NCBI GenBank assembly: GCA_964401705.1 | Contig: CAYNZJ010000001.1 | Coordinates: 69,648-117,327, forward strand | Origin: an uncultured Candidatus Saccharibacteria bacterium | GTDB lineage: Bacteria > Patescibacteriota > Minisyncoccia > Phycocordibacterales > UBA9973 | Reading direction: 5' to 3' | DNA length: 47,680 nt | In this document: positions 455 to 37,372 of the stretch, piece after piece | Layout of the letters: every line of letters starts with the position of its first letter | Position numbering within the stretch: position 1 is the first letter of the stretch | Notes under the pieces: model-generated | Databases searched by the model: none | The model's input: only the letters and a program-made list of their open reading frames with translations | What the model was told of the DNA's origin: nothing | Made by a program: the position numbers and the translations under genes

Positions 455-456
455 TA

Positions 457-1737: not shown

Positions 1738-1738
1738 A

Positions 1739-2629: not shown

Positions 2630-2632
2630 AGA

Positions 2633-3577
2633 CTATTCAAATTTTTTATAATTTTCATTAAAATATTTTTCTTCTTCGAATTCCAGCCCTTTCACTGCGA
2701 ATTGTTCAATTAATTTTCCATCCTGCCATTTTGTTGCACCAATCCCTCCTTTGTATATTTCGACTTTTTGACCTGACAAACCACTTCCGTCACTAAATTC
2801 CATGGTCCCATCAAATCGCATAGTGCCCTTGTAGATATTTTGACCATTTTCAATTTTAAAAAGATTATACTCCACATTATCAGTATAAGGAATGGAAACT
2901 CTTCTATAAAAATAGCTTGGATTCGATTTCAAAATTATATCTTGCTTTGTATAAGTATAATCTATGCCTCGTGAATCTGTCCCATAAATATTTCTATCCT
3001 TGATTTCTAAATTAACCTCCGGAGATTTATCATCGTAGACAAATTTAATTTTTAAACCATCTATAAAAAACTTACCTGAAGCTTGGGTAGGACGATTAGA
3101 AATAAAAGTTCCATCATTATTTAGTATAATATAATCTTCATCGCTATAAAGTGCAATGTATTTACCTAAAATTTGTGGTTCAACACCAGCAAATTTTTCA
3201 TCATGGCAAGATCCTCCATAAATTTCATTTGGTACATTATTATCTTTTAATATTTTACAGCCCGGGTCATCTTGAAAACTCGCCAAAATACTCCACTTAC
3301 CATCTTTTTTAATTGCTATATAATGTGAATCATAATAGATACCAGTAGCAAAATTATCCTTTATAAGATCAATTGTGTAATTACCAGATGTAAAACTTAA
3401 ATCTGATATTATTTTTGATTCTTCATTATTATTCTCAATTTTTAGATCTTCAACTACTGACGAAGGATTATCCCCCTTATTCAAAAACCCAAATTTTATA
3501 AAACTTTTCGAATATACAAAATACCCAGCGCCTGCGAGAATTAGAATTATTAAAATTGTGATTAAAGTTTTTTTCAT
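2633..3577 (-). CDS. hypothetical N-terminally anchored exported protein (array member 3)
   Basis: 314 aa. Leader MKKTLITILIILILAGAGYFVYSKSFIKFGFLNK. Carries the same GKFFIDGLKIKFVYDDKSPE module as member 2. Confidence 0.65.
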   Translation of the reverse strand: MKKTLITILIILILAGAGYFVYSKSFIKFGFLNKGDNPSSVVEDLKIENNNEESKIISDLSFTSGNYTIDLIKDNFATGIYYDSHYIAIKKDGKWSILASFQDDPGCKILKDNNVPNEIYGGSCHDEKFAGVEPQILGKYIALYSDEDYIILNNDGTFISNRPTQASGKFFIDGLKIKFVYDDKSPEVNLEIKDRNIYGTDSRGIDYTYTKQDIILKSNPSYFYRRVSIPYTDNVEYNLFKIENGQNIYKGTMRFDGTMEFSDGSGLSGQKVEIYKGGIGATKWQDGKLIEQFAVKGLEFEEEKYFNENYKKFE

Positions 3578-3578
3578 A

Positions 3579-4457
3579 TTATTCTATGCAAGTGTCCATT
3601 AATTTTTTATTTAATTCATCAACTTGTTTAGGGGTAATCTCGGTCTGTGTTTTGCCCTCTGGGATATAACTTTTATAAATAGAATTAATACAGCCCTCCT
3701 CCTCTTCAGGAGATTCATCCAAAAAATGACTATCAATAAGGACTGAAATTAATGTACTTTTTTGAGTTACTAAATTGTAATAATAATGAGCTACAGCAAA
3801 ATCACACATATTACAATCTGAACCTGCATTAAATTTTTCAGAGACACCAGGATAGGTGATTTCCATCAAGTCCATATTTGTAAGATGAGGCCAGTAATCT
3901 ACCCCATTATCTCTAAACTTCGTCCATGCCTTACCCAAGCCACCATGAGCCCTGTCACCAGAATGAATCTCTGTTTTTTTGTTCAAACTATTACCATCTT
4001 TCTTAAAAACAAATAAGGATGTAACAGTGCTTGATCCACCCATATTGTCTTCCGTTTGAACAATAATTTTATCTTTAAGGTCTTTTATTATTTTATAAGA
4101 AATTGACCCCCTGTAACTATCTTCTTGTTCAGGAAAAAGTATGTACCCTGAACCAATAAAACCATATTCATCTTTTTCTGTTTCAATTTTTTCAAATTCT
4201 TTATTACATTTTTCGATGTTTATGTTTTCATTAATTTCGAAACCTTCCCCAAAACATAAAGGGTGAATAAACCCTATTTCGGACTGCTCTACATTTTCAT
4301 TCTTAACCCCACTTTCAGTATTTACTGACGGTTGCTCAACTTCCCTCGCCTGCAAAAACCCTAAATTTATCAAACCTTTTGTATGAGCAAAATACCCAAG
4401 CCCAGCGAGGATTAGGATTATTAGGATTACTACTAGAGATTTTTTTGTGGAAGTCAT
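3579..4457 (-). CDS. hypothetical N-terminally anchored exported protein (array member 4)
   Basis: 292 aa. Leader MTSTKKSLVVILIILILAGLGYFAHTKGLINLGFLQ. Cys-rich ectodomain with no motif I recognise. Confidence 0.65.
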   Translation of the reverse strand: MTSTKKSLVVILIILILAGLGYFAHTKGLINLGFLQAREVEQPSVNTESGVKNENVEQSEIGFIHPLCFGEGFEINENINIEKCNKEFEKIETEKDEYGFIGSGYILFPEQEDSYRGSISYKIIKDLKDKIIVQTEDNMGGSSTVTSLFVFKKDGNSLNKKTEIHSGDRAHGGLGKAWTKFRDNGVDYWPHLTNMDLMEITYPGVSEKFNAGSDCNMCDFAVAHYYYNLVTQKSTLISVLIDSHFLDESPEEEEGCINSIYKSYIPEGKTQTEITPKQVDELNKKLMDTCIE

Positions 4458-5362: not shown

Positions 5363-6637
5363 TTACAAATTATTTATTTTATTTTGATTTATCTTAGCAG
5401 TGTAGAACATCATTATCATCAACAGTACATATAGCAGTATTGTACCAGCTAATAAATTAACAGATTCTACTTGGATTAACCAATAGATAACCCCATATAT
5501 TCCTAATAAACCAGTTGCAGTAGCAACACCATATTTTGTAGAGTTAAGCGCAGTACCAATATATGCACCATTTATAATCATTGTTACAATAGTAGCTATA
5601 ACATATGCCCCCATGAATCCGATTTCTTCACCTAAAGAAAGGTTTAATAGATAAAACAAACAAAGAGATACTCCAACCAAAACATACTGGATTTTATTAG
5701 CGATAAATTTTCGGCGCATATCAAGTAAAAAGATTATAAAGAAAGTGAAAACAATAACTAATGATGCATATTTGGTTATTCGGTCTACCATTGTGATATC
5801 ATCTGCACCACTTATAAAATCAACTCCAATAAATTTATTTTCAAGCTTACGGAAACTACTAGAATCATCGGTTTGATAAGAATAATCAACATTGAACACG
5901 GCTTTGGTGTTTTTAGAATTTTCTTCTAAACTACCATAGTCACTACCTTTGATACGAATATTATCAAAATCGGAATTAATAGTTAAAGTATATACCCCTT
6001 CATCCAAATTAATAGACCGTGAAGCCTTGGAATCCCAAGAATAATGCAGTGTTGCATCTTTACCCTTGAATTCATTTGGAATTTTGATTAAATAATAAGA
6101 ATTTTTATTATCACTATAAATATTATCATCTCCTTTATTAAAATCAGAAATAGGGATCATGGTTTTACCATCAATAGTTATTTCTGCTTTAAAATTTTTA
6201 ACATTCGCAATTGAAAAAACTGGGATTTTGATATACCCCGAATCAAAATTAGTTGGGATTTTAAAACTTTCGTTAGAATCAACACTGTAATCAAAAGACA
6301 CAAATTTTTGTTTACCTAATTTTTTTGAATTAGTATCAATGATATTAATATCAATAACTGGGTTATTAATTGAGGTTTTTGTAATAATGCGAGAACTTTC
6401 TAACCCATTAACATTATTAGTATTTAAAAGGCTTGATGGCGAAACTGTCAAAACTGGTAATTCAGTATCAATGCCTTTAAATGCAGTCCTGGCGTCATCT
6501 ATTCTATTTAGTACAAAAAGTCTTACAATAAGACTTGCCATAAAACAAATTAGCGCGATGATAAATACTGCTAATATTCTATCCCCTAGCTTTTTGCTAG
6601 TTTCATGGTCTAGTTTTGGAAGTTTAAATATATTCAT
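5363..6637 (-). CDS. creD: CreD-like cell-envelope integrity inner-membrane protein
   Basis: 424 aa. N-terminal TM helix, large extracytoplasmic domain, C-terminal multi-TM block. IQYVLVGVSLCLFYLLNLSLGEEIGFMGAYVIA resembles the conserved CreD core (QY.LVG..L.LFYLLLLSLSEHIGF..AY). Confidence 0.65.
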   Translation of the reverse strand: MNIFKLPKLDHETSKKLGDRILAVFIIALICFMASLIVRLFVLNRIDDARTAFKGIDTELPVLTVSPSSLLNTNNVNGLESSRIITKTSINNPVIDINIIDTNSKKLGKQKFVSFDYSVDSNESFKIPTNFDSGYIKIPVFSIANVKNFKAEITIDGKTMIPISDFNKGDDNIYSDNKNSYYLIKIPNEFKGKDATLHYSWDSKASRSINLDEGVYTLTINSDFDNIRIKGSDYGSLEENSKNTKAVFNVDYSYQTDDSSSFRKLENKFIGVDFISGADDITMVDRITKYASLVIVFTFFIIFLLDMRRKFIANKIQYVLVGVSLCLFYLLNLSLGEEIGFMGAYVIATIVTMIINGAYIGTALNSTKYGVATATGLLGIYGVIYWLIQVESVNLLAGTILLYVLLMIMMFYTAKINQNKINNL

Positions 6638-6697
6638 ATAACTGAATTATAACACTATATTATATAAAATAAAGCATCTTTAATTACAGTCTATTAT

Positions 6698-6726
6698 TTG
6701 ACTAAACCCTCTAAAAAATATATAAA
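6698..6726 (+). promoter_or_regulatory. sigma70-like promoter (TTGACT-N17-TATAAA)
   Basis: TTGACT at 6698-6703, 17-nt spacer, TATAAA at 6721-6726, upstream of the 6751 ORF. Confidence 0.4.
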
Positions 6727-6750
6727 GAATACAAATAAAAACAAGAAAAT

Positions 6751-6957
6751 ATGGATCAAGGAAAATACTACCAGAAGAAGAAAAAAGAAGAACTTCAAGA
6801 AAATATCGTCTGGGGAAAAGTCTTTTTAGTGATATTATCTTTAGTTGTTATAGGCTATTTTGTCTACAATATAATAAATGGATTTAATACGAAAAATAAA
6901 GAGTCATCCCCTATTAAAAAAATAGAAAAAAACAGAGAAGACGAATACATGCTATAG
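6751..6957 (+). CDS. small single-TM hypothetical protein
   Basis: 68 aa. TM segment VFLVILSLVVIGYFVYNII. Has its own promoter-like and terminator-like signals. Confidence 0.4.
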   Translation: MDQGKYYQKKKKEELQENIVWGKVFLVILSLVVIGYFVYNIINGFNTKNKESSPIKKIEKNREDEYML

Positions 6958-7709: not shown

Positions 7710-8348
7710 ATGAGCAACATAAACAAAAAACCAGTACTTTTCTTTGATTTTGATGGGCTTAAATTTGATACACTTGAAATTCATATCCAATATATAAATC
7801 AAAAATATGGGATAAGAACTGTTGAATCTGATTATTTAGATAATCCAGATTTGAGTTTGGTTATCAATAAATATTTACCTGATAAAAATACACATTTTAC
7901 TAAAGATTATGTGTATCAAGATATTAGTAAAAATTTAATGGAATCAATCGATTGGCATAAAAAGGTGGAACCTTTTCAGGATATGCCCGAAATTGTAAAA
8001 GATTTGTATAAAAAATATGAAATGATAACAGTAACCGCAAGACCAACAAATAGTATTACTGTTATTAAACAATTAATAAAACAGCATATTCCAGGATGTA
8101 TTGAAAATGTTCATTGTGTTCACGAACTTTTAGAGGACGGAACATTTAAAGTATTACCTAAAAAAGATTTCATTTTAAATCACCCTGGTGAAAAAATTGG
8201 ATTTTTTGATGATAGTCCAAAAGAAATTTTGCGAGTTCATGACGTTATACCATCCTATCTGTTTGATCCTACAGGATTACATGATTCCAACTCAGATATC
8301 GAAAACCGAATTCGTAGTTGGAAACAAATTGGAGATTTATTTTTATAA
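7710..8348 (+). CDS. HAD-superfamily hydrolase (nucleotidase-like)
   Basis: 212 aa. N-terminal FFDFDGLKFDT (HAD motif I, DxDG), VTARP (motif II-like), FFDDSP (motif IV-like). Confidence 0.55.
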   Translation: MSNINKKPVLFFDFDGLKFDTLEIHIQYINQKYGIRTVESDYLDNPDLSLVINKYLPDKNTHFTKDYVYQDISKNLMESIDWHKKVEPFQDMPEIVKDLYKKYEMITVTARPTNSITVIKQLIKQHIPGCIENVHCVHELLEDGTFKVLPKKDFILNHPGEKIGFFDDSPKEILRVHDVIPSYLFDPTGLHDSNSDIENRIRSWKQIGDLFL

Positions 8349-8351
8349 AAA

Positions 8352-8380
8352 CCCCGTAAATCAATACGGGGTTATTTTTA
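8352..8380 (+). terminator. rho-independent terminator
   Basis: CCCCGTA / TACGGGG stem (8352-8371) followed by a TTATTTTTA run. Confidence 0.65.
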
Positions 8381-8463
8381 TATTTTAAAATTAACTATTC
8401 TTTGTAACCATCCTTCCATTTTTTAAGCTCTGAAGAGTAAGTGGTTATATCATCAAAATGATA

Positions 8464-8889
8464 TCAGTCTAAAAATAGTATAAAAAATACTACGTTTATA
8501 AAAATAACTGGAATTATTAGTAATAAATTTTTATAAATATTATTTTTTAATATATATTTTTTAATAAAATATAAATATTTTCTAGTAAATAAAATTTCAA
8601 TAACAAAAATAAGAGTATAAAAAGATAATGGAATAAAATAATCAAAAAAATCAATACATTTACCACAAGAATTTATTATATTACTTAAAACAATTGATAA
8701 ACAAATAACTATAATTAATAAATAAAACCTATAGTTAATCTTTGAATTCTTTTCATTTAAAATTATAATAAAAATGTAAATTAAACTTATAGAAAGTGGA
8801 ATCAAAAAATCAAATAAACTAATACTTGCGAAATACCAAAAAATAAAACCTAATATAAGAACCAAGAACGAATAAATAATATAGTACAT
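8464..8889 (-). CDS. small polytopic membrane protein, candidate cognate immunity protein of the RHS toxin
   Basis: 141 aa with 4-5 predicted TM helices. Its start codon lies 5 nt after the RHS stop codon on the same strand. The immunity role is inferred from position alone. Confidence 0.5.
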   Translation of the reverse strand: MYYIIYSFLVLILGFIFWYFASISLFDFLIPLSISLIYIFIIILNEKNSKINYRFYLLIIVICLSIVLSNIINSCGKCIDFFDYFIPLSFYTLIFVIEILFTRKYLYFIKKYILKNNIYKNLLLIIPVIFINVVFFILFLD

Positions 8890-8893
8890 TCTA

Positions 8894-11800
8894 TTAATTA
8901 TAATTAACTATTAAATTTAGTGTTTTGTTATTAGGAACAAACCATCTATGAAATTCGGCTGAATTACTAATTAAATCGATACAACCCTTCGACCCAGGAC
9001 TTAATCCTCCATGAACATAAAAACCTGTTTCTTTAATATTATTCTCATTTCTAATCTCAGTTCTTACTGACCCCCACGACTTAACAGAGCCTGGCCAAAG
9101 TCCTTTTGCTAATAATGATCCCCCTATCTGTCTTGTTGGTAAATCAAAAAAATATTCTGTATCTTTTGGGTTCAACTTCCAATTACCTTCTGGGATAGGA
9201 TCATAAATCTCTGGTTTCCCTGATGTTGCTTTCCATTTTAATGAGCCTATCTCTGAATCATATATTCTACTATAAACGCTAAGATACTCATTATTAAAAT
9301 GTAACTCAGCATCATTAGTTGGTAATGATATAAACATACCTTCTTTTATTTTATTACTATCTTTTATTCCACTTGCATTTGCTATTTGAGACATATTTAA
9401 ATTCATTTCAAAATGTTTATTGATTCTATTTGTTATCCCACCTAACGTATCCCCTTTTTCAACTTCTCCGGTTTTTATATTAAATTTTCCATCCGGATCA
9501 ATATATTTTAATGGATTATTTGATGCATATGAATAACTATTCCATCTTTGAGGGTCAAGTATTAGCAATTCAAGCTTGGAATTATCAATCTCACGAACAA
9601 TTGGATCTTGTTGCCAGAAACGACCTTCACCCCCATGTTGATAACGAGCCTGCATAAAATTAAGACCAGTATCAATATCGTATTCATGACCAGTGTATTT
9701 ATGTGATTCATCAAAAGCCCCTGACTTTATATTTGAAAGAATCTGACCAAAAGGATAATATTCAATATCTTGAACTTTTAACGAACCAGCACTATCTGTA
9801 ACGATTTGTGTCCCTCCTAAGTAATCTGGATGAATATAATAAATATTTGAAGTTGCTGGTGTTGAACCTTCAAGAGTTGCAATTAGTTGATTTTCTAAAT
9901 AAATATATCTTTTATTTATTGTAGCATTTTCTTCAAAATATTTGCTAGGGTTATAAATTACCCCTGAAGAATTTGTAGTCTTAATTCTTGCCCCTGAATA
10001 ATCATAAAGATAAGTATTCAATATTGGATTTGGTGGAGTAATTTTTTGGTATTTAATCAATTCGTTTCTATAACTATAAGTTAAAACTGTATTATCTGGT
10101 GGATTTCCAAATTCAATAACATTACCATTTTTATCATAAATATAATCAATCCCGCCAACAGATGTAGCTGCATGTGGGTTAGCATAAACACCTGGTGCAG
10201 TACCATCATATAAATAAGAACCAACCCCGGTTTTGTTTAATATATTACCAACGGCATTATAAGAATAATTTTCAGAATAACCAGACAAAGGTGAACTTAC
10301 TGTTTTCGTTGCACTTGTTAAACGGGATAATCCATCATAATTATAATTAAATATTTGTGGATTAAGTGGGTTAAAATTCTCAATTTTTTGAGTTAGATTT
10401 CCTATTGTATCCCATTGATAATTTGTATCAATTAAATTAGGGTATGCATACGTTACCGGGGCATTTAATAAATTTCTTATTAATTGATATTGTTTGGAAT
10501 CATCATAAAAATAATTTTGAGTTCTACCATTTGCATATTTAATAGATTCTTTTTGTCCTAATACGTTATAGGAGATGTTATCTATAACACTGACCCATGG
10601 GCTAGTTGGAGTATTTTTTCGATCAATGTTAATAATTTGACTCAAATCATTATAGGTATACCTTACTAATAATTGGTCTGGGTATTTTATACTTAAAATA
10701 TTTCCTTGATTATCATATTCATAAAACAAACTCCATTTTTTTGTACCTAAAGATGTTGATTCTTCAGAAATTAACCCTCTGTTTGTATATATAAAATTTT
10801 TAATACTGGATCCAATTCGACTAACACTACACAGTCTTCCTATACCATTAGAACATGCGTCATAACTATAAGTTATTTGAGGCATACCATTATTTATCTC
10901 TCCAGTTACTCTATTAAGAGAATCGTAATTGTATCTTACATTATTACCATTTGGTGTTATTTTTTGGATCAAATTATTATTATCATCATACGAATATGAA
11001 TAAATACCGTAATTAGTGTCTGACACCTCATGTAAATCAGTTAATGTTAAAATATTTCCTAATGGATCATATTTTATTGATCTAACATTCCCCAAAGCAT
11101 CATTTATCTCTACTAAATTACCTAAAGTATCCCAAACATATTTTGTAGTATGGCTATTTAACCCATCATATTCAATAACGCTAGTAATCTTCCCGAAAGC
11201 ATTATAGATAATGTCTTTTTTATTATTCTTAGAATCAACTACAGTTGTTTTATTTAAATTATAGATATTAGTTGTAGTTCCTAAAGTATTAGTGATATAC
11301 AATGGTCGATTTAAATAATCATAACTCATTGTAGTTGTTATATTGTTATTTAAATTCGGACCATTATAACTAGAGAAATTGCTATTTAAAGTATAAGGTA
11401 ATGTTCTTTTATATTCTCTCCCCATATTATCATAAACAATATCACTAGCTATAAAAACAGACCCGTTTTTTTCTATTTTTCTAATCTCTCTACCTAACCC
11501 GTCTAAAATAATATAAGATTCACCTGTAAATATTGAATTATAATAATTGATTTTTTTAATATAAGAAGGAAGACCAGGTGAAAAAGTATCGTTATAATAA
11601 TAAATTGTGCTTATAACAAGAGGTGTATAAGAAAGATCACTAGAATTTTTTTCAATCAAAGGCCTTCCAAAACCATCAAACTCTGTTTCTTTTTCAAAAC
11701 CATTAGGGTCAATAGATTTTAAAACACCTCCATGATTATAATCATAAGTATAACTTGTGGTTTGAGACAAAGCATTAGTTACACTGCTTGGGTATAAATA

Positions 11801-14800
11801 ATAATAATCATAATTTATACTGTTTGTATTATTACGAGCATCTTTGACACTAGTAATCAACCCAAAAATATTATATGTATTTTTTATAGTTTGATAATTA
11901 ACACCCCCAGACCATATAGATTCACTAGTTTTATTACCAACAGAGGCATAACCAAATTGCAAATTATCATAATAAAAGATTTTTTCAGAAATACGATTAC
12001 CATTGTAATCTTTAAGTATAATTTTTGAAGGAAGAATTAATCCACTACAAACTACAAAGTTACAATTTGTGTAACTATATTCTGTTTTACGAATATCATT
12101 ATCAACATCAATAAAACTTTGATAATTATTAACACTAACCAGACCAAATTCTATTTTGTTTAATAAATTACCATTTTGAGTATCGTATAAATATGTTTCT
12201 GCTGTATCATATGAATTTCCTCCGTTAAAAGTGCGTGAGATTAATTGTTCTGTATAAATAAAGTTCGAATTTGTATTTTGAATTTTATTATTAAACCATT
12301 TTATAGTATTTTGTTTTAATAAATTATTATTGGGATCAAGTAAATCTATTCTGTAAACTTTACCAATTTTAGAATAATTATCATTAGTCTCACCATTTGA
12401 TATATCAGTATCATTAGCTTGATGATAATATGTTATTTCTTTTGTGTTATCAGGATTAATTTGTACAACCTTACTAAAGCCTGCAAATTTGCGATCAAAA
12501 GCATTATTGTAATAATATGACCCACCAGAATATTCATAACTGGTTTTTGTTGTGTTACCCAAACCATCATTTGTAATGATACTTTCAACAGTATTTAAAT
12601 TTATTGGTAAATTTGGATTTAATAAATTCCCCGAGGTATCTTTATACTGAGAAGATTTTTTATAAGATATTTCTGATACTGCCCCTGTCCCATATTCAAT
12701 CTTTGAAAGCAAATCAGGTATTTTATTACCTTTGTTTATATAAGCAATTGTTACAGTTGGGGTACTATTTTGTGTTCTTAAAAAATCAACAAAACCATCA
12801 GAATTAATATCTGCGATTACAACAGGATTTGACATTAAAGAATTATTTGGAACTGTTAAATCCCAAATAGGTTTATAAACCCAACCATTACCAGTATTTA
12901 AATATGTACCTCGATTACCTCCTGTTTGATTAACTGGATCAATAACAATATCAATTAAATTATCACTATTTACATCTAAAAATCTAACCCCTTGATCATA
13001 GTAATTATTTGCTAGAATTATTGGTAATAACCAATTTGTATTATTAACCCACCCTGTATCACCCTTGTTTAAATACGCAAATGAAGGTTCTGTAAGATTA
13101 TACCAATGCTTAGATACTGCATCAGCTAAACCATCAGCATTAATATCAACCATTCTATTTGTGGTAAAAGTTAATTCATCAATAGGGGGATTCCAATTTG
13201 TAGTAATATTTGTAAAACCATAACCAGTATTTAATTGTTCACCAGTGATACTACCTTGACTCCTAATAATATCTGGTAAAGTGTCTCCATTTAAATCAAC
13301 TAAATGCGTACCATAATCATGAATATCAAATCTCCCGGTAAAAGGAATTTTAGGCTCCCAATTAAGGTCTTTAACCCAACCATTTATTTTGTCGTAAATA
13401 TATGTATGATAAATATCACCACGAACAAGACTATTATAACTACCACCATTGGCAGACTGAACAATATCTGGTAATTGATCGCCATTTATATCAGCAACAC
13501 GAACACCTTGGTCCCAAACATTACCATAAGCTCCGCCCCTAACCTCAAAATTCAAAAACGTTATTGGAATTTTAAAATCACTATCACCTTTCCAGTCTTT
13601 ATTTGTTGTATGGTTATAAAGTACTTTATCATAGTGAAAAGGTCCGGTACTAAGATTTTGTCCATATCTATCAACAGACTGTATTATATCAACCCAAGAA
13701 TCCCCTTTAATATCTATAGCCATTTCATGATTATCCCCCAAAAGTACTGGTGATGACCAATTTACACTATCTTCATCCCACCCAGGAGTTGTTTTTTGAT
13801 AAGTAAATTTTGAAGGTGGTAGTGTTTTTATAACACCGTTTTTATCTTTAGAAGATAAAGTTATTGAATTAATTAAAGATCTAAAACCATTGTCACCTGT
13901 TGTATATGTTATTACATATTTTTTAACCCAATTACCATTTACTTTTGCCTGTATTTCATTAATCCGGTAACTTGTTGTAACTTTAAAAGCTGTTTTATAT
14001 GATGTATATGAATCGCTTCTTATTTCTCTAAAAAACTCAACCTCAAAAATCCCAGGGGAATTTGAATGCTCTGTGTAATTTATTTTTTGTGGGTAAATTT
14101 CTCCAGCATCTTTATAATATTTATAAGTTATATAGTTCCCATTTAAATCACGTTTTTCATCAAGCATCCATTTATAAACTTGATTTGTATTTGATATATT
14201 ATCTTGTCTTGAATCTGCATTTGTTCCAAATTTATAAGTTACACCAGATTTATCTTTAAAAACCCAAGAATTATTTGTTAAAAAATATTCATGGAAACCT
14301 CCATTATCCACTCTTGGTCTATATACACCTGGACTTATTTCGATTAGTTCTCCATCTATTGAAGATGTAAAATATTTTTCTGAATAAATTTTTTCAGAAC
14401 CATTTTTATTTACTCTTTCAATATAAGGTATATCTAACCCCCAAGAATACCCAAAAACACCGCCATTTTCGTTCTCTTGTGAATTATAATTAATATTAAT
14501 TTCTGGAGTCATACCTAGTCTTCCTTGAGGTATAGTTATAGGATAACTATAATTCATAGCTCCTGTTATTAAATCTGTTTTTGGTTTTGATCCATAAAGA
14601 CCATCAAGTTTACCTGTTGGATATTCCGTTTTACCACCAACACCATTAGAAGATAGAGATTGTTCAGCTTCTGGGGTTATCTCTTTATTTTCATCATTAT
14701 TAAGATTAATATCAGGGTCTTCTTCTAATGGAACAACTTGATCAAGATTTTCTGGAACTACAGGATCTGTGGACAATTTATCTTGAGAGACATCTTTTAC

Positions 14801-14998
14801 TTCTAAAGTAGTTTCATCTATAATATCTGAATTTAAATTATCTAAAACTACATTTTCCTGAATTGTTTGGGAAGTTTGTTCTTCTGCAAAAACTACTGAT
14901 AATGGGCTTATAAAAAAACAAAAAACCACTAAATAAATTAGTGGCTTTTTATATAAAGTTAAATAATTATTAGTTTGCCATAAGAATGGTCTATTCAT
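8894..14998 (-). CDS. secreted SpvB/TcB-like + FG-GAP + RHS/YD-repeat polymorphic toxin (TcB-TcC-like cocoon) with a LysM/Tlde1-like C-terminal tip
   Basis: 2034 aa. Signal peptide (LVVFCFFISPLSVVFA|EE). SpvB-like motif TGAMNYSYPITIPQGRLGMTPEININYNS at about aa 145-175. Five D.N.D...D FG-GAP/VCBS-type repeats at aa 425-745 (DINGDQLPDIV, DLNGDTLPDII, DINADGLADAV, DVNSDNLIDIV, DINSDGFVDFL). TcdB-mid-like YEYSGGSYYYNNAFDRKFAGFSKV. Many YD repeats (Y.YD..GN). RHS end motif NPLKYIDPDGK at about aa 1828-1838, then a 196-aa tip. Confidence 0.9.
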   Translation of the reverse strand: MNRPFLWQTNNYLTLYKKPLIYLVVFCFFISPLSVVFAEEQTSQTIQENVVLDNLNSDIIDETTLEVKDVSQDKLSTDPVVPENLDQVVPLEEDPDINLNNDENKEITPEAEQSLSSNGVGGKTEYPTGKLDGLYGSKPKTDLITGAMNYSYPITIPQGRLGMTPEININYNSQENENGGVFGYSWGLDIPYIERVNKNGSEKIYSEKYFTSSIDGELIEISPGVYRPRVDNGGFHEYFLTNNSWVFKDKSGVTYKFGTNADSRQDNISNTNQVYKWMLDEKRDLNGNYITYKYYKDAGEIYPQKINYTEHSNSPGIFEVEFFREIRSDSYTSYKTAFKVTTSYRINEIQAKVNGNWVKKYVITYTTGDNGFRSLINSITLSSKDKNGVIKTLPPSKFTYQKTTPGWDEDSVNWSSPVLLGDNHEMAIDIKGDSWVDIIQSVDRYGQNLSTGPFHYDKVLYNHTTNKDWKGDSDFKIPITFLNFEVRGGAYGNVWDQGVRVADINGDQLPDIVQSANGGSYNSLVRGDIYHTYIYDKINGWVKDLNWEPKIPFTGRFDIHDYGTHLVDLNGDTLPDIIRSQGSITGEQLNTGYGFTNITTNWNPPIDELTFTTNRMVDINADGLADAVSKHWYNLTEPSFAYLNKGDTGWVNNTNWLLPIILANNYYDQGVRFLDVNSDNLIDIVIDPVNQTGGNRGTYLNTGNGWVYKPIWDLTVPNNSLMSNPVVIADINSDGFVDFLRTQNSTPTVTIAYINKGNKIPDLLSKIEYGTGAVSEISYKKSSQYKDTSGNLLNPNLPINLNTVESIITNDGLGNTTKTSYEYSGGSYYYNNAFDRKFAGFSKVVQINPDNTKEITYYHQANDTDISNGETNDNYSKIGKVYRIDLLDPNNNLLKQNTIKWFNNKIQNTNSNFIYTEQLISRTFNGGNSYDTAETYLYDTQNGNLLNKIEFGLVSVNNYQSFIDVDNDIRKTEYSYTNCNFVVCSGLILPSKIILKDYNGNRISEKIFYYDNLQFGYASVGNKTSESIWSGGVNYQTIKNTYNIFGLITSVKDARNNTNSINYDYYYLYPSSVTNALSQTTSYTYDYNHGGVLKSIDPNGFEKETEFDGFGRPLIEKNSSDLSYTPLVISTIYYYNDTFSPGLPSYIKKINYYNSIFTGESYIILDGLGREIRKIEKNGSVFIASDIVYDNMGREYKRTLPYTLNSNFSSYNGPNLNNNITTTMSYDYLNRPLYITNTLGTTTNIYNLNKTTVVDSKNNKKDIIYNAFGKITSVIEYDGLNSHTTKYVWDTLGNLVEINDALGNVRSIKYDPLGNILTLTDLHEVSDTNYGIYSYSYDDNNNLIQKITPNGNNVRYNYDSLNRVTGEINNGMPQITYSYDACSNGIGRLCSVSRIGSSIKNFIYTNRGLISEESTSLGTKKWSLFYEYDNQGNILSIKYPDQLLVRYTYNDLSQIINIDRKNTPTSPWVSVIDNISYNVLGQKESIKYANGRTQNYFYDDSKQYQLIRNLLNAPVTYAYPNLIDTNYQWDTIGNLTQKIENFNPLNPQIFNYNYDGLSRLTSATKTVSSPLSGYSENYSYNAVGNILNKTGVGSYLYDGTAPGVYANPHAATSVGGIDYIYDKNGNVIEFGNPPDNTVLTYSYRNELIKYQKITPPNPILNTYLYDYSGARIKTTNSSGVIYNPSKYFEENATINKRYIYLENQLIATLEGSTPATSNIYYIHPDYLGGTQIVTDSAGSLKVQDIEYYPFGQILSNIKSGAFDESHKYTGHEYDIDTGLNFMQARYQHGGEGRFWQQDPIVREIDNSKLELLILDPQRWNSYSYASNNPLKYIDPDGKFNIKTGEVEKGDTLGGITNRINKHFEMNLNMSQIANASGIKDSNKIKEGMFISLPTNDAELHFNNEYLSVYSRIYDSEIGSLKWKATSGKPEIYDPIPEGNWKLNPKDTEYFFDLPTRQIGGSLLAKGLWPGSVKSWGSVRTEIRNENNIKETGFYVHGGLSPGSKGCIDLISNSAEFHRWFVPNNKTLNLIVNYN
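8897..9253 (-). other. Tlde1/DUF2778-like (L,D-transpeptidase-fold) module at the extreme C-terminus of the RHS protein
   Basis: WKATSGKPEIYDPIPEGNWKLNP ... GFYVHGGLSPGSKGCIDL. The SG....PIP.G.W and H-x9-C (S.GCI) arrangement resembles DUF2778/Tlde1 and the YkuD catalytic His/Cys. Recalled from memory of the family, not searched. Confidence 0.5.
9323..9469 (-). other. LysM-like peptidoglycan-binding module within the RHS C-terminal tip
   Basis: Tip residues about 6-54: VEKGDTLGGITNRINKHFEMNLNMSQIANASGIKDSNKIKEGMFISLP. This fits the LysM pattern (V..GDTL..IA......... L...N.l....i..Gq.l.iP). Confidence 0.55.
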
Positions 14999-15006
14999 AT
15001 GAGTGG

Positions 15007-15036
15007 ATTATACCTCGACTATATTTAGTTTGGCAA
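15007..15036 (-). promoter_or_regulatory. promoter of the RHS gene (TTGCCA-N18-TATAAT), ATG 8 nt after the -10 box
   Basis: On the minus strand: TTGCCA (15031-15036), 18-nt spacer, TATAAT (15007-15012), CCACTCAT, then the ATG at 14998. No SD sequence, so leaderless or nearly so. Confidence 0.45.
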
Positions 15037-15069
15037 ATTTAATTGTGGAAAACTCCCCTAATTATATCA

Positions 15070-15092
15070 ACTTGGAGGTCCGACCTCCAAGT
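15070..15092. repeat. REP-like 23-bp perfect palindrome, copy 1 (central C)
   Basis: ACTTGGAGGTC-C-GACCTCCAAGT. Lies 4 nt downstream of the RAYT stop codon and directly upstream of a TGATATAAT box facing the RHS gene. Confidence 0.9.
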
Positions 15093-15095
15093 AAG

Positions 15096-15719
15096 TTACT
15101 TTGGATCTAAATCTTCTTTCCTTTTACAAATATCTTTCCAAGTAATGTCAGCATATTTCTTATATTCTCCAACATTCGTATATTGCCCTAAAACTATACT
15201 GGTATCACAAATAGATTCATTGGTTTTGTTTAAATACTCATCAAGACTTGATTTACTCAACTTGGAGGTCGGACCTCCAAGTGAATCTAAGTTATTATAG
15301 TTAACATAAACAGATAAATGTAATAAATATCTATCGTCTGGTATATATTTAGATTTAAATTTACCTTGAAATAAGACACCATTCCTATTATATTTTTCAT
15401 TAAAATACATTGTGTACCCACCAAATCTTTGCATAAATTTTTCAATACCCTTGTCTATTAAGGGAGTTAAGATTAAATGAAAATGATTCGGATTAATACA
15501 ATACGCAACGATATCTACCAACTTGGAGGTCGGACCTCCAAGTGAATCTTTTCTAAAAGAATTTTCATAAATACTACCAATTGGTTTTTCTGTGTTAAAT
15601 TCTATAAGACTTTGCACAAAACGATTTAGATCTTCTTTATCTAAAATTATATCGCGTTTATCTGACCCACGATTATAGATATGATAGTATTGCCCTATTT
15701 CAAAACTATGCTTTCTCAT
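15096..15719 (-). CDS. IS200-like Y1 (HUH) transposase / REP-associated tyrosine transposase (RAYT)-like
   Basis: 207 aa. YHIYNRGSDKRDIILDKEDLNRF, HUH motif NPNHFHLIL, GVLFQGKFKSK, and a Tyr-containing YVNYN motif. Flanked and interrupted by the 23-bp palindrome. Confidence 0.8.
   Translation of the reverse strand: MRKHSFEIGQYYHIYNRGSDKRDIILDKEDLNRFVQSLIEFNTEKPIGSIYENSFRKDSLGGPTSKLVDIVAYCINPNHFHLILTPLIDKGIEKFMQRFGGYTMYFNEKYNRNGVLFQGKFKSKYIPDDRYLLHLSVYVNYNNLDSLGGPTSKLSKSSLDEYLNKTNESICDTSIVLGQYTNVGEYKKYADITWKDICKRKEDLDPK
15260..15282. repeat. REP-like palindrome, copy 2 (central G), inside the RAYT CDS
   Basis: ACTTGGAGGTC-G-GACCTCCAAGT within the shared 31-mer CAACTTGGAGGTCGGACCTCCAAGTGAATCT. 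Encodes DSLGGPTSKL in frame. Confidence 0.9.
15521..15543. repeat. REP-like palindrome, copy 3 (central G), inside the RAYT CDS
   Basis: Same 31-mer as copy 2. It also encodes DSLGGPTSKL in frame, just upstream of the HUH motif. Confidence 0.9.
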
Positions 15720-15733
15720 ATAATTATTATACT

Positions 15734-15756
15734 ACTTGGAGGTCCGACCTCCAAGT
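15734..15756. repeat. REP-like palindrome, copy 4 (central C), overlapping the RAYT promoter
   Basis: On the minus strand: ACTTGGAGGTCGGACCTCCAAGT-AG-TATAAT-AATTAT-ATG. The palindrome supplies a TTGGAG -35-like hexamer (15749-15754) and the 17-nt spacer. Confidence 0.9.
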
Positions 15757-15853
15757 AAAGTACAAGTTGGATTTGTGGTGGGGGGGGTACAGATGGGGGT
15801 CCTTGTTTTATCTGTTTTGGTAGGAATTTTTTTATTATTATTTATTTTTATTT

Positions 15854-17584
15854 TTAAATTTTATGGGAATTAGAATGAGATTCTTTGATAATATGGTTTT
15901 TAAGATATTCCATAGTTCCCCCGACTTTTTTACCTGGGTTTAGTATATTGTTTTTATCAAAAGTATCTTTTGTTTGTTTAAATAAATCATAAACATACGG
16001 GCCAAATTGTTGTAATAAAAATGGGGTTCGGATGATACCATCATTATGTTCGGCGGTTATTGAACCATTATATTTTAATACAAGGTCATAAACTTTTTCT
16101 GAAACTTCAATAATTATTTGTGCGGTTTTGGGGTCACTAAAATCCATAAGTGGGATAATATGGAAATTACCATTACCAGCATGGCCCGCTATGGTATAAG
16201 TTATTTTATAATTATTTAATAAACTAGTAAGCTCGGGTAAAAATTCGGGTAATGAATTTGGCGGAACAATAACATCATCAATAAATGGTGCTGTATGTTT
16301 GTTCTTAATATGTTTACGAAGAAGAGCAAAGCTCTCGCGACGAATATCCCAATATTTTGAAGCTTCTCTTTCGGTTTTTATGATCCGAGATTTATAATTA
16401 AATAATTTTATTTTTTCCAAAAGACCAACAGCATTGTTGTTCACCACTAATTCATTATCGCCAGAGAATTCAATAAGTAAAACTAGTTTTGGAATTCCGC
16501 CCAGTAACATCATCAAGGCTTCTGGCAGAAAGCTTGCCATGAATTTAATCATCCCCAAAAGGCCTTTATTTTTAAGAAAATCTGGGAAAAACTTTATTGC
16601 TAATTTCATAGTATCTTGGTCATAGGATTCTATGCTTTCAGGTTTAAAAGGTAAAATAAAATCAACCAAAGAACCCAGATTCTTTAGATCTTTCATAAAG
16701 ACAACAACGAGTTTGGTATGTTTTTTGACTTCAACTAAATGAAGAGTTATTTTAGTGACGATACCCAAAGTACCCTGGGACCCAACGATTAATTTAGTTA
16801 AATCAAAGATTTCTTTTTCTTCATCCCAAACATTCCAAAGATAATACCCTGCAGAATTTTTACTAACATTTGGTTTTGCTTTTGTTATTTCTCTTTTGTT
16901 GTTTTGAATTATTTGGAAAATATTTTTATAAATATCACCTTCAAAATCATTTTGTCCAATTTTGACGTATAATTCATTTTTAGTTAGTGGTTTTACCGTA
17001 TATTCATAACCATCAGCAAATACAACATTAAGCTCTTTGATGTAATCTTCGGTTTTACCATAAGATAAACTTTTTTCACCGGCGGAATTATTACCAACCA
17101 TTCCACCCATAGCATTAATGCTTTTAGATGCTGTATAGCAAGGTAAAATTAAACCAAGTTTTAGTGTTTCTTGTTCGAAATCACGATAAAAACACCCTGG
17201 TAGTACGGTGGCTTTACCTGAAATTGTTACAGGATATGATTGGTTAAACATTGGCTTGATTGAAAAATGATCAACCTTTACTACTGACTCAACCATATTC
17301 ATGTATCGAGTAAAATCCATAACAATGGATTCGCCAATTGCTCCTCCGGACATACAAGTACCAGCTGAACGTGGAGTAATAGATAAATTAGGATATGTAT
17401 CTTTGTTTTTATTTATAAAACGAACCAAATTTTGAATATCTAGAGAGTCTTTAGGATAAACAACTATTTGTGGACGAATGACAAAAATACTGGCATCATG
17501 TGAATATTTTTCCAAAGTTTCATCTGTTATATCAACATCACCCTTAAAGAAAATTTTAATTTCGTTCACTAATTTTTCTATCAT
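15854..17584 (-). CDS. FAD-binding oxidoreductase (GlcD / D-lactate dehydrogenase-like)
   Basis: FAD-binding PCMH-type region (PRSAGTCMSGGAIGESIVMDF, GSQGTLGIVTKITL) and a C-terminal GSITAEHNDG region. I moved the start to the ATG at 17582-17584 (MIEKLVNE) because the track's longer ORF overlaps the upstream terminator hairpin. Confidence 0.8.
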   Translation of the reverse strand: MIEKLVNEIKIFFKGDVDITDETLEKYSHDASIFVIRPQIVVYPKDSLDIQNLVRFINKNKDTYPNLSITPRSAGTCMSGGAIGESIVMDFTRYMNMVESVVKVDHFSIKPMFNQSYPVTISGKATVLPGCFYRDFEQETLKLGLILPCYTASKSINAMGGMVGNNSAGEKSLSYGKTEDYIKELNVVFADGYEYTVKPLTKNELYVKIGQNDFEGDIYKNIFQIIQNNKREITKAKPNVSKNSAGYYLWNVWDEEKEIFDLTKLIVGSQGTLGIVTKITLHLVEVKKHTKLVVVFMKDLKNLGSLVDFILPFKPESIESYDQDTMKLAIKFFPDFLKNKGLLGMIKFMASFLPEALMMLLGGIPKLVLLIEFSGDNELVVNNNAVGLLEKIKLFNYKSRIIKTEREASKYWDIRRESFALLRKHIKNKHTAPFIDDVIVPPNSLPEFLPELTSLLNNYKITYTIAGHAGNGNFHIIPLMDFSDPKTAQIIIEVSEKVYDLVLKYNGSITAEHNDGIIRTPFLLQQFGPYVYDLFKQTKDTFDKNNILNPGKKVGGTMEYLKNHIIKESHSNSHKI

Positions 17585-17645: not shown

Positions 17646-19586
17646 TTATGGTTTAATTAATGTTTTACCTGGAATTTTGTTTTGACCTGATTCTTTATGG
17701 ACGGAATAAACAATACAAGCTTTTGAATCCTCATTTGCAAAATCAAAATCAGGAACTAAAAATGTTGTTATGTTTTTAAATGACGGACTTAAACCAAAAT
17801 CAGCATTTACACTTATTCGCATTGATTGACCAGGAGAAAGAGTTATTGGTTTGGAAAGTTTAATTGTTTGGGGAATTGGGTTTTTATCAACATCATAAAA
17901 TGGTCCTTTGAATGATTTAGTTGAACCGAGTACGTTATTTTTTTCATCATAGACTTTGTAATTAATCATATATCTTAAAGAAGAATTACCATTAGCTAAT
18001 TCAGTCCCAACTAATTTAATACCAGTAATAACAATATTACCATCAAAAACAACATTTCCTGGATCATCATACTTTAGAACCCAAGTTCCAATATTTTCAT
18101 CTACAAGAACATCTGATGAAAATGAAACTTTTATTGGATTATATGCAGTCACATTTAAATCACCACCTTTTTTAGAATATTTATAAGTTAAGACAACACC
18201 GCCGGCTAATTGCCTTTCCGCAGGACCAGGGTATTTTACACCATATTGTTTCATCTTATCCCAACTTACTCCATTAATAGATGACCAGACATCATAACTA
18301 AGGATACGCCCATTATCAAACCCCCCAAGTGTCCAAAGTTTATTATTAAAAGCAACCATTGTGGAATAGTATCTTGGAGACAATAGTTTAGTAGTATTGT
18401 TTGAAACCAACTTCCAATCTTTACCATTTGTGGTTTTTATAACCATCGGAGCTCCTGTTTTGCGATTTGATGATATAACCCAAGCTTCTCCACGGAAGAT
18501 TACAGGTATTGGATTTGTATTCCAAGCAATATCTAAAACTTGATCATTTTTACCATCGATTTTAAATTCACCTTCATCGCGCCAATTTACACCATCAATT
18601 GATGAATAGATCTTTTTTTGACTACCGTATTCGTCTTTATTATTTGTAACGACATACCAAATTCGCCCATTTAATACATATGCACCTAAAGAATTACTAA
18701 TGTATCCGCTTTTAGCATTACTTACTACATCTGAACCCCCTAAATTACCATAAGCGTTACCGTCCCATGGGTTTGTTTTTATTTCTTGGTTCCAAGTTAT
18801 TCCATCAACAGAGCTCCAAATACCCACAGATTTTTGACTTGAAATAAACCAAAATTTGTTTTTGAAATAAACCATTGAGCGATCATATTCGCGCAAAGTT
18901 GGAGGTAATTCACTAAGATATGTCCAATTGACCATATCTGTTGAATTGTAGACACTATTATCATGAGTTCCACTTGGAGTATATTTACCACCAAAAACAT
19001 AAGCTGTATTGTTAACTACGAGTGGCATTATTTCCCATTTTTCACCCATTGCTGTTGATTTGGCAACCTCTATCCAATTTTCACCATCAATTGTAGACCA
19101 AATATTAGAACTTCTACCTAGATTGTTTTTACTAAGGTCAAAAGTCTCTCCTAATAAAATATATAATTTTTCACGATCATAAATACCACAAGAATTTGGT
19201 AAATTAGCTTGGCCAAATTCAGGTCTTAAATTTGCAGGAACTTCTGCTGGTTTTTCATTACCACCCCGAAAGATAGATTTAATATTTTGAATTATTCCCA
19301 TTTTATTTTCTGGCTCTGGCTCTAATTCTGATTCTTCGTTTTCATTAAAATTAAATTCATCTAGGATGATTTCACCATTTTCATCAAACAAAACTGGTTC
19401 TGGATTTTTGCCTAAATCCAAATCACCTTCTTCAGATAAAGATTGAAAAACATTTGCACCTAATAAATTTGATTTTATATTCCTAAATGCTGGAATATCT
19501 ACACTTAAAATAGAAACAAAACAGATTATAACAAACACAACTACGAGCACGATTAGTCTTTGATTTTTTTGAGAATTACTATTCAT
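17646..19586 (-). CDS. membrane-anchored BNR/Asp-box repeat beta-propeller protein with a C-terminal beta-rich domain
   Basis: 646 aa with an N-terminal TM helix. Six S.DG..W-type Asp-boxes: STIDGENW, STDMVNW, SSVDGITW, SSIDGVNW, TTNGKDW, SSINGVSW. Confidence 0.6.
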   Translation of the reverse strand: MNSNSQKNQRLIVLVVVFVIICFVSILSVDIPAFRNIKSNLLGANVFQSLSEEGDLDLGKNPEPVLFDENGEIILDEFNFNENEESELEPEPENKMGIIQNIKSIFRGGNEKPAEVPANLRPEFGQANLPNSCGIYDREKLYILLGETFDLSKNNLGRSSNIWSTIDGENWIEVAKSTAMGEKWEIMPLVVNNTAYVFGGKYTPSGTHDNSVYNSTDMVNWTYLSELPPTLREYDRSMVYFKNKFWFISSQKSVGIWSSVDGITWNQEIKTNPWDGNAYGNLGGSDVVSNAKSGYISNSLGAYVLNGRIWYVVTNNKDEYGSQKKIYSSIDGVNWRDEGEFKIDGKNDQVLDIAWNTNPIPVIFRGEAWVISSNRKTGAPMVIKTTNGKDWKLVSNNTTKLLSPRYYSTMVAFNNKLWTLGGFDNGRILSYDVWSSINGVSWDKMKQYGVKYPGPAERQLAGGVVLTYKYSKKGGDLNVTAYNPIKVSFSSDVLVDENIGTWVLKYDDPGNVVFDGNIVITGIKLVGTELANGNSSLRYMINYKVYDEKNNVLGSTKSFKGPFYDVDKNPIPQTIKLSKPITLSPGQSMRISVNADFGLSPSFKNITTFLVPDFDFANEDSKACIVYSVHKESGQNKIPGKTLIKP

Positions 19587-21620: not shown

Positions 21621-21623
21621 AAT

Positions 21624-21648
21624 AAAAATCCCCAAACGGGGATTTTTA
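21624..21648. terminator. bidirectional rho-independent terminator
   Basis: AAAAATCCCC-AAAC-GGGGATTTTT lying between the convergent pfkB-family and tkt genes. Confidence 0.7.
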
Positions 21649-21668
21649 TCAAAAAATTTTTATGTATT

Positions 21669-25562: not shown

Positions 25563-25740
25563 TAATGAAGATATTGTTCTTTCTTAAGAACAAAAAATAC
25601 CGGAACGCTCTAGGTGTCGCCTGCTACTTTAGAGATATGCTCTTGTTTCCTAACTTGGATCGATTCAATGAAGCTTCTAGGGAAACTTGGTGACGTAGGT
25701 TCATGGGCAAATTGCTAGTCGAAAAGACTAGCTTTTTTAT
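25563..25740 (+). ncRNA. orphan plus-strand transcription unit: candidate small RNA or leaderless 42-aa ORF
   Basis: TTTACT (25528-25533), 17-nt spacer, TATTAT (25551-25556). Then a stretch of about 150 nt that is noticeably GC-richer. Strong terminator GCTAGTC-GAAAA-GACTAGC plus TTTTTT at 25714-25740. An ATG at 25565 opens a 42-codon ORF (MKILFFLKNKKYRNALGVACYFRDMLLFPNLDRFNEASRETW). Identity unknown. Confidence 0.3.
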
Positions 25741-37370: not shown

Positions 37371-37372
37371 AA

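Follow-up and report, generated by a model that had tools for sequence, protein, structure and literature searches.

The window described here, that is the whole stretch of DNA that was analysed (47,680 nucleotides, or 47.7 kb, of contig CAYNZJ010000001.1), carries one very large gene at 8894..14998 (-), hereafter the RHS gene, which runs as a single uninterrupted open reading frame (ORF) from an ATG to a stop codon and encodes a precursor of 2034 amino acids (230 kDa). We consider it likely that this gene, together with the 141-aa ORF that follows it, forms an antibacterial toxin-immunity operon of the polymorphic RHS class, built in the form of a TcB-TcC ('BC') cocoon and working without TcA. 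The toxin is probably exported by Sec and independent of TcA, and judging by homology and structural modelling its payload is most likely a wall-binding, wall-modifying enzyme acting on peptidoglycan. Since the identical 2034-aa protein is recorded on further public contigs and syntenic loci of independent assemblies hold relatives at 87%, 59% and 51% identity, we take the RHS gene to be a real and conserved one. Its modules and the gene behind it are as follows.

14885..14998 (-): predicted signal peptide, aa 1-38, with KK in the n-region, the h-region LIYLVVFCFFISPLSVV and a V-F-A|E site; hydrophobic 12-mer score 2.82
14567..14884 (-): acidic low-complexity linker, aa 39-144, with 25 D/E against 7 K/R
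14057..14566 (-): SpvB/TcaC N-terminal domain, aa 145-314 (Pfam SpvB, E 5.8e-15)
12764..13726 (-): FG-GAP/VCBS-type beta-propeller, about aa 425-745, with six DxNxDxxxD motifs
12431..12823 (-): TcdB_toxin_midN segment, aa 726-856 (Pfam E 7.1e-18; 65 bits, with the cutoff at 24.8)
9761..12421 (-): YD/RHS repeat shell, about aa 860-1746, including DUF6443 at aa 1165-1225 (RHS_repeat E 1.2e-20, YD_repeat_2x E 2e-17)
9485..9760 (-): Rhs-associated core, aa 1747-1838 (Rhs_assc_core TIGR03696, E 2.5e-15 over aa 1747-1837)
8897..9484 (-): predicted autocleaved payload, aa 1839-2034, 196 aa, 22.0 kDa, isoelectric point 7.1, cut after PLKYIDPDG-K1838
9320..9463 (-): LysM domain in the payload, aa 1846-1893 (Pfam E 7e-6, 22.8-26.3 bits against a cutoff of 20.9)
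8897..9322 (-): predicted Tlde1/YkuD-type L,D-transpeptidase-fold domain, aa 1893-2034, assigned by relatives, profile and an AlphaFold2 (AF2) model
8464..8889 (-): 141-aa membrane protein with four transmembrane segments (4-TM) and four hydropathy peaks, 'family A', located 4 nt behind the stop codon of the RHS gene; candidate immunity or accessory protein

An earlier note on this DNA had listed most of these modules and had named the failure of profile searches to find the SpvB/TcB and Rhs-core domains as one possible refutation; both were recovered, as were the RHS/YD repeats. Its proposal of a fused TcB/TcC architecture is likewise borne out by comparison with solved structures. With a profile built from 29 family members, the best relative in the PDB is the TcdB2-TccC3 fusion (E 9e-68), followed by an Rhs family protein, other type VI secretion system (T6SS) Rhs effectors and teneurin-like proteins and, lower down, by TccC2, TcdB1, YenB (E 4e-29, propeller and mid region), YenC2 and the SpvB N-domain 6p0x, which Foldseek also matches (6p0x_A, TMt 0.62). 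The YD/RHS shell itself finds RhsA (7q97), Tse5 and TcdB2-TccC3. An AF2 model of aa 135-1000 (window 11999-14596; predicted local distance difference test, pLDDT, 74.9; predicted template modelling score, pTM, 0.72) has TcB subunits as all 13 of its 13 best Foldseek matches in the PDB (E 1.8e-37 to 1.4e-29, TM about 0.56, spanning more than 1000 alignment columns), whereas the shells of T6SS Rhs proteins score weakly (E ~1e-12, TM <0.2). Because TcB subunits fill the top 13 places in this way, the modelled front half of the RHS protein is specifically TcB-like.

Six DxNxDxxxD motifs (at aa 429, 503, 568, 618, 675 and 730) mark the propeller, where five FG-GAP/VCBS repeats had been counted before; the number refers to sequence motifs, not to blades counted on coordinates. 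Their Asp/Asn residues are invariant in 29 homologues, the FG-GAP_3 match at aa 618-686 lies slightly below its threshold (25.5 bits against 26.9), and the family profile aligns the region with residues ~340-800 of YenB/TcdB1 and with integrin alpha propellers. The TcdB-mid-like segment proposed earlier stands as far as midN is concerned (E 7e-18), while a profile search of the RHS protein gave no match to TcdB_toxin_midC at E<=0.01. As a separate observation, the propeller part of the AF2 model also resembles the seven-bladed fungal lectins PVL, PAL and AAL2, which bind N-acetylglucosamine (GlcNAc) (E ~5e-7, TMt ~0.5); this likeness hints that the propeller could bind sugar.

The N-terminus, MNRPFLWQTNNYLTLYKK-PLIYLVVFCFFISPLSVVFA|EEQ, combines a basic n-region and a hydrophobic core with a V-F-A site that hardly varies across 29 homologues (P32, A38), and a similar hydrophobic segment followed by a VFAQE-like site is found in 96 of the 114 family members that start with Met (~84%). 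On this heuristic assignment, which uses the n-, h- and c-regions and their conservation, aa 1-38 are signal-peptide-like and predicted to direct Sec export, in agreement with the cleavable-looking signal peptide described before. The linker behind it (aa 39-144) gave no Pfam or NCBIfam domain, and no PAAR, LXG or cell-wall-binding domain, in profile searches.

At the other end, the Rhs core bears an aspartyl autoprotease motif (...RYQHGGEGRFWQQDP...NPLKYIDPDG-K1838), of which D1798, D1834 and G1837 are invariant in the 29 homologues. A rule for the autoproteolysis site of TcC has been derived experimentally (PMC7861908), and the PxxxxDxxG element of the core, with Asp at P-3 and the basic Lys at P-1, fits it. 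The core ends in the NPLKYIDPDGK given by the earlier note, and its 196-aa tip length is exact if cleavage follows K1838.

That tip had been described merely as variable. Tips do vary in the family, as shown below, but this one is not anonymous: it is recognisable as a LysM plus L,D-transpeptidase-fold module. The idea arose from FYVHGGLSPGSKGCIDL, whose HGG..GS.GC motif suggested a His/Cys active site (predicted catalytic His1996 at 9011-9013 and Cys2006 at 8981-8983, within the last 142 residues), and was then tested by means of relatives, profile and model. Used as a single sequence, the tip gave LysM as its only Pfam match, no match for the catalytic domain at E<=1 and none in the PDB, and a word-indexed search found no homologue; an exhaustive HMMER search over 1.84 billion representatives was needed, which returned 514 relatives (E<=1e-3). 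Of the 149 top-scoring ones, 142 have the domain C-terminally, on otherwise varied carriers, some with Phage_Mu_F (MuF), eCIS_core or RHS. Among 80 relatives scanned, Tlde1_dom was found in 62 (E<=1e-3), YkuD (PF03734) in 33, LysM in 10 and PG_binding_1 in 4; the orthologous tips reach E 0.0076 for Tlde1_dom and 0.039 for YkuD in Pfam. A profile of 25 tip sequences matched only Tlde1a in the PDB (7uma, 7uo3, 7uo8; E ~1e-6, over nearly the whole domain), with His1996 and Cys2006, invariant in the 25 relatives, aligned to the catalytic H121 and C131. The AF2 model of the tip (pLDDT 92, pTM 0.87) agrees: all 15 of the 15 best PDB matches have the L,D-transpeptidase fold (Bd1075, Tlde1a, mycobacterial Ldts, Pgp2, DpaA and others), the best being Bd1075, an L,D-transpeptidase-fold protein of Bdellovibrio, and Tlde1a is matched with E 1.3e-5 and TMq 0.63. 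On peptidoglycan tetrapeptides, Tlde1a acts as an L,D-carboxypeptidase and also exchanges D-amino acids (PMC9638812). Since the tip combines LysM with a Tlde1/YkuD-type domain, its likely target is peptidoglycan, and the earlier suggestion of a host- or competitor-directed weapon is narrowed to one aimed at the bacterial cell wall.

Enzymes of the YkuD type are mostly housekeeping proteins, LysM often anchors proteins to the producer's own wall and teneurin-like YD shells are among the PDB matches, so one might think of a non-toxic surface structure, namely a teneurin-like adhesin or wall scaffold in which LysM and the L,D-transpeptidase serve the producer's wall by anchoring or 3-3 cross-linking. 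We regard this as very unlikely. An intact autoprotease motif of the Rhs core precedes the domain, which would thus be encapsulated, the relatives of the domain are overwhelmingly C-terminal tips of varied proteins (MuF, eCIS and RHS carriers) and group with the Tlde1 effector family instead of the housekeeping L,D-transpeptidases (Ldts), and orthologous shells swap the domain for unrelated toxin domains.

Such swapping is evident from the family as a whole. At least 159 relatives were found over the whole protein (E<=1e-10), most of those with a named source belonging to the 'Patescibacteria group', Paceibacterota or Ryanbacteria, with records from Methanoperedens, Deltaproteobacteria and Bradyrhizobium among the exceptions; the gene is not an oddity of this genome. 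Two relatives lie on contigs of ~1 Mb, JAWVHC010000005.1 and Ga0642625_00002 being ~1-Mb contigs with family members, and among GTDB species genomes the sole match is a metagenome-assembled genome of Candidatus Nomurabacteria (60% identity, different tip). Some members are already annotated by NCBI as SpvB/TcaC or RHS proteins, and RHS toxins of Patescibacteria are already noted in passing in the literature, where a Saccharibacteria RHS toxin with its immunity gene was mentioned in 2018 (PMC6031116). The tips of 104 family members fall into ~50 clusters, an approximate number, as the automatic cutting at the DPxG motif went wrong in some long proteins such as P0051. Named tips on orthologous shells include VanY/Peptidase_M15_4, DUF6973, Tox-GHH with PT-TG and Tox-ART-HYD1. 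Tips homologous to the payload of the window are carried by P0002, P0003, P0007, P0121 and P0122, whereas the orthologous shells P0004-P0006 have unrelated ones. Between P0001 and P0002 the shells are 91.6% and the tips 44.3% identical, and between P0001 and P0007 these values are 50.5% and 71.1%; because shell and tip identities disagree in this way, we conclude that tips are exchanged by recombination. This discordance answers the check on orthologous loci that the earlier note had asked for, and upholds its view of a polymorphic RHS toxin.

Loose parts of such modules were also seen around related genes. In L003 a stand-alone Peptidase_M15/VanY gene (9199-9918) lies directly upstream of the RHS gene and encodes the same type of enzyme as the RHS tip in L005-L007. 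In L013, two genes downstream of the RHS gene, an 'orphan' module (12416-13378) joins a signal peptide to an Rhs core (..YIDPTG) that bears another tip; no orphan tips or extra rhs fragments were found in the window. In L009, P0029 and small downstream ORFs are bracketed by two phage-type integrase genes (5899-6795 and 21466-22413), an arrangement which suggests that this toxin module sits on a mobile island in its ~1-Mb contig.

The gene directly downstream changes with the tip. The 141-aa ORF has no Pfam family and an indexed database search returned only the ORF itself, while pairwise or tblastn comparisons showed it to be homologous to ORFs directly after Tlde1-type tips in L003 (E 2e-12) and L011. 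Behind the tips of L002, L003, L004, L011 and L013 stands a member of a second 4-TM family, B, so that a 4-TM ORF of family A and/or B stands directly downstream in six of six loci with Tlde1-type tips, against none of five loci with other tips. Pfam gave no match for A or B; a sub-threshold hit to Acyl_transf_3 in one family B member (22.6 bits against a cutoff of 31) was taken as compositional, and the notion that A and B are distant homologues was rejected (hhalign probability 0.4%). Other tips have other followers: the VanY tip of three loci (L005-L007) precedes a 177-aa N-terminally anchored protein, the DUF6973 tip a different small exported protein and P0029 an unrelated 167-aa ORF, and a Barstar-family gene begins 3 nt after the RHS gene of P0034 (L010, 15970-16383), which implies a barnase-type RNase tip in P0034. 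Tip-linked downstream genes of this kind are, as far as gene order can tell, a signature of toxin-immunity modules. As the downstream gene co-varies with the tip type (6/6 versus 0/5), we propose the 141-aa ORF as a candidate immunity protein. The window also encodes FtsW and a MraY-like transferase, which indicates that the producer makes peptidoglycan itself and needs self-protection.

The same payload might instead be a tool at the interface with a bacterial host, the cocoon bringing LysM and the L,D-transpeptidase-fold enzyme to the host's wall for local peptidoglycan remodelling (trimming or re-linking of stems) in the service of attachment, pilus passage or nutrient uptake. It speaks for this alternative that the closest relatives are Patescibacteria with ~1-Mb contigs, that the top structural match, Bd1075, comes from the predatory Bdellovibrio, that LysM directs the payload to a wall, and that in L013 genes of a type IV pilus (1-3926; PilM, a pilin-like T2SSG protein and a prepilin peptidase) immediately precede a LysM-Tlde1 RHS gene. 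We nevertheless judge it unlikely, since rapid tip exchange, nuclease and ADP-ribosyltransferase (ART) tips, Barstar and tip-specific downstream genes are typical of antagonism with self-protection; moreover, the pilus adjacency occurs in just one of 11 loci, for which reason a type IV pilus was also rejected as a general partner, and no host is identified by the data.

Regarding delivery, Pfam scans of the 44 ORFs of the window revealed no TcA, VgrG, PAAR, type VII secretion system (T7SS) or CdiB component, the last belonging to contact-dependent inhibition (CDI), which confirms what had been noted before, and none was seen within the 4-10 kb flanks of ten related loci. The 44 ORFs encode housekeeping functions (pentose-phosphate and glycolysis enzymes, GatB, Obg, FtsW, MraY, ScpAB, tRNA synthetases, an ABC exporter) and a few unknown exported proteins. 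With the defining partners absent from the window and an N-terminal fold that is TcB-like and not T6SS-Rhs-like, a conventional Tc locus, a T6SS Rhs system and a CDI system were rejected. One could still think of a BC subunit of a conventional ABC (Tc) toxin with a eukaryotic target, whose TcA is encoded elsewhere in the genome: profile and fold are strongly TcB-like, the propeller gate is kept, and orphan TcC genes as well as natural BC fusions exist in Proteobacteria (PMC7861908). This reading appears extremely improbable to us, as the payload is aimed at peptidoglycan, which eukaryotes lack, no TcA was found in the window or around the ten related loci, two of them on ~1-Mb contigs, and a 1-Mb genome would be heavily burdened by a TcA gene of ~7.5 kb. 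In addition, canonical Tc toxin is released by lysis dependent on the type 10 secretion system (T10SS) (PMC10847048), in contrast to the signal-peptide-like N-terminus in 84% of our family. Export by Sec alone, as the earlier note had it, stands as the probable route, but is less surprising than was implied, because monoderms are known to export RHS toxins (WapA) through Sec (PMC12704120).

Compared with the cocoons of TcdB2-TccC3 and YenB-YenC2, the order of modules is the same (SpvB, propeller, TcdB-mid, RHS shell, Rhs core with PxxxxDxxG, payload of ~200 aa). Unlike these, the RHS protein is one polypeptide with a signal-peptide-like N-terminus, no TcA was found nearby, TcdB_toxin_midC was not detected, a tip-specific gene follows, the payload is predicted to act on peptidoglycan instead of the eukaryotic targets of Tc toxins, and the lineage is Patescibacteria-like instead of Proteobacteria or Firmicutes. 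With the WapA-type RHS/YD toxins of Bacillus subtilis and Streptococcus suis, some of whose tips act outside the cytoplasm in S. suis (PMC12704120), it has in common an N-terminal Sec signal, an RHS shell, a variable C-terminal toxin, an adjacent (here candidate) immunity gene and the lack of T6SS and T7SS; it differs from WapA in lacking the N-terminal cell-wall-binding domain and SrtB/SecF-like neighbours (PMC12704120), and its TcB-like front half of SpvB, propeller and TcdB-mid is missing from WapA. T6SS Rhs effectors (RhsA, Tse5, Tse15, RhsP) resemble the RHS protein in their YD shell and Rhs core, in the motif for autoproteolysis and in having polymorphic tips, yet the latter is without a PAAR, VgrG or prePAAR N-terminus, and its N-terminal 866 aa match these effectors weakly (E ~1e-12, TM <0.2) in comparison with TcB (E 1e-37). 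The tip, finally, shares with Tlde1a, a Salmonella T6SS effector (PDB 7UMA; Tlde1_dom/DUF2778, PF10908), the L,D-transpeptidase fold and the position as a C-terminal toxin module; the W-G-x-x-R, F-Y-x-H and S-x-G-C elements align and the His-x9-Cys spacing is identical. It is, unlike Tlde1a, housed in an RHS cocoon with LysM instead of being delivered by T6SS, and the next gene encodes a 4-TM membrane protein instead of the periplasmic Tldi1. In short, the RHS protein works most like WapA, is built like a Tc BC cocoon and carries a Tlde1-type payload, and fails defining features of each.

If the RHS gene and the 141-aa ORF are the toxin-immunity pair that we propose, the 230-kDa precursor would be exported unfolded via Sec and its signal peptide cut after Ala38. 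Outside the membrane, the SpvB domain, the six-motif propeller, the TcdB-mid segment and the YD/RHS repeats would fold into a closed shell, a fold that profile and model bear out, and the Rhs-core aspartyl protease, whose motif is present, would cut after Lys1838, the free 196-aa payload presumably staying inside the shell. The latter, to judge from its predicted fold and the residues His1996/Cys2006 a LysM plus Tlde1-like L,D-transpeptidase-fold enzyme, would be released at a neighbouring bacterium and, by homology, bind its peptidoglycan and trim or exchange the terminal D-Ala of stem tetrapeptides in a Tlde1a-like manner, thereby weakening wall homeostasis. The 141-aa four-TM protein would protect the producer or its kin, as its strict co-occurrence with the tip type suggests. 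No TcA injector would take part, and the cell aimed at could be either a competitor or the bacterium on which the symbiont itself lives.

Several points weigh against this interpretation. Signal-peptide cleavage, autoproteolysis, secretion and toxicity are predicted only, and the TcA negative covers the 47.7-kb window and the flanks of ten related loci. For its catalytic domain the tip remains below every Pfam threshold, and its assignment draws on transitive homology and a model. His129 of the (S/T)HGC element of Tlde1a is Lys2004 here (S2003-K2004-G-C2006) and mostly Ala in the relatives (S-A-G-C); chemistry or substrate may thus differ from those of Tlde1a. The assignment of immunity is indirect and the protein a candidate: two unrelated 4-TM families, A and B, follow Tlde1-type tips, and their presence does not track tip similarity, as the tip of P0007 is 71% identical to that of the window, yet only family B follows it. 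It should also be noted that members with nuclease or ART tips need to enter the cytoplasm of the target, which Sec export alone does not explain.

Opening of the propeller gate in Tc toxins requires TcA, and BC cocoons have, to our knowledge, been understood solely as capsules for cargo which attach to TcA, the injector. Here an entire family retains the capsule with its gate and bears a Sec signal in addition, and no injector is apparent, which raises the question of what opens the shell. Tentatively, and with considerable doubt on our side, one might propose that Patescibacteria possess widespread TcA-independent, Sec-exported BC cocoons, in which the integrin-like propeller with its calcium motifs would be receptor and gate at once, the shell would open on binding to a glycan or protein in the wall of the target cell, and the payload would be released at or through the target envelope. 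Payloads would range from wall enzymes to nucleases and ADP-ribosyltransferases, and the two 4-TM families would represent a new, membrane-embedded immunity to an extracytoplasmic L,D-peptidase. Hints at this proposal come from the invariant propeller motifs, the likeness to GlcNAc lectins, the conserved signal peptide and the failure to find TcA around 11 loci. As far as we know, very few interaction factors are known for Patescibacteria-like organisms, which would gain here an effector that is probably antibacterial or directed at a host and whose defined target would be the stem peptides of peptidoglycan. Tlde1 has, so far as we are aware, been studied as a T6SS effector; its family would be extended to a monoderm-type, Sec-dependent context of delivery, and two uncharacterised membrane-protein families (A and B) are nominated as immunity factors. 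None of this calls for cultivation of the source organism, recombinant protein made in E. coli or Bacillus being sufficient to examine it.

The DNA surrounding the RHS gene has a G+C content of 26-35% and contains the following further elements.

15007..15036 (-): promoter-like site TTGCCA-18-TATAAT with 11/12 matches, the top sigma-70-like score in 8200-15900, directly 5' of the RHS start codon; a consensus match alone, the number of such sites in 8200-15900 not exceeding chance
8350..8373 (no strand): terminator-like G+C-rich hairpin with a 9-bp stem (5 G-C pairs), between the convergent 141-aa ORF and HAD-like gene
15096..15719 (-): RAYT-like Y1 transposase ORF of 207 aa (Pfam Y1_Tnp, E 7.3e-6), directly upstream of the RHS gene and outside the toxin, given as context only
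15070-92, 15260-82, 15521-43 and 15734-56 (no strand): four copies of the 23-nt palindrome ACTTGGAGGTCSGACCTCCAAGT, 4 found against 0 expected by chance

Promoter-like site and 3' hairpin are consistent with an operon of two genes, the RHS gene and the 141-aa ORF. The palindrome is perfect and G+C-rich, and its four copies all lie within 15070-15756 with none elsewhere in the window; two of them flank the RAYT ORF, one (15070-92) falling in the gap that separates the stop codon of RAYT from the promoter-like site of the RHS gene, and two lie in frame inside the coding sequence, each encoding SLGGPTSKL. They look like elements of the repetitive extragenic palindromic (REP) type inserted into their own transposase gene. 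The flanking of the RHS gene by RAYT and REP signatures, which had been described earlier, holds for the upstream side; on the other side there are none, and REP elements on both sides were rejected given the position of all four copies. The palindrome is also present in L002, with no exact copy in L004. The RAYT-like gene lies upstream of the orthologue in L004 too (9280-9903), there on the opposite strand and in the window on the same strand as the RHS gene, so that it is inverted between the two loci.

Two genes upstream of the RHS gene (17646-19586), the window encodes a 646-aa Kelch-repeat beta-propeller protein, which is missing from the equivalent position in L004. Four tandem paralogous ORFs without Pfam match (457-4457; 426, 296, 314 and 292 aa) each start with an N-terminal membrane anchor, MKK..ILIIxILAGAGYF, and have a 101-nt repeat in common at their 3' ends; they make up an uncharacterised family of exported proteins. 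Next to FtsW and the MraY-like gene, 34816-36228 encodes a 470-aa protein, probably of the cell surface, that contains a Lamin Tail Domain as well as PKD domains. The FtsW-family ORF (36231-37460, TTG start) and the MraY-like ORF (37373-38431) overlap by 88 nt as listed, the true FtsW start codon probably being further downstream than the listed TTG. Finally, a 76-nt stretch from the 3' end of GAPDH (25738-25813) recurs one gene on at 26655-26730 with 80% identity and may be the remnant of a duplication.

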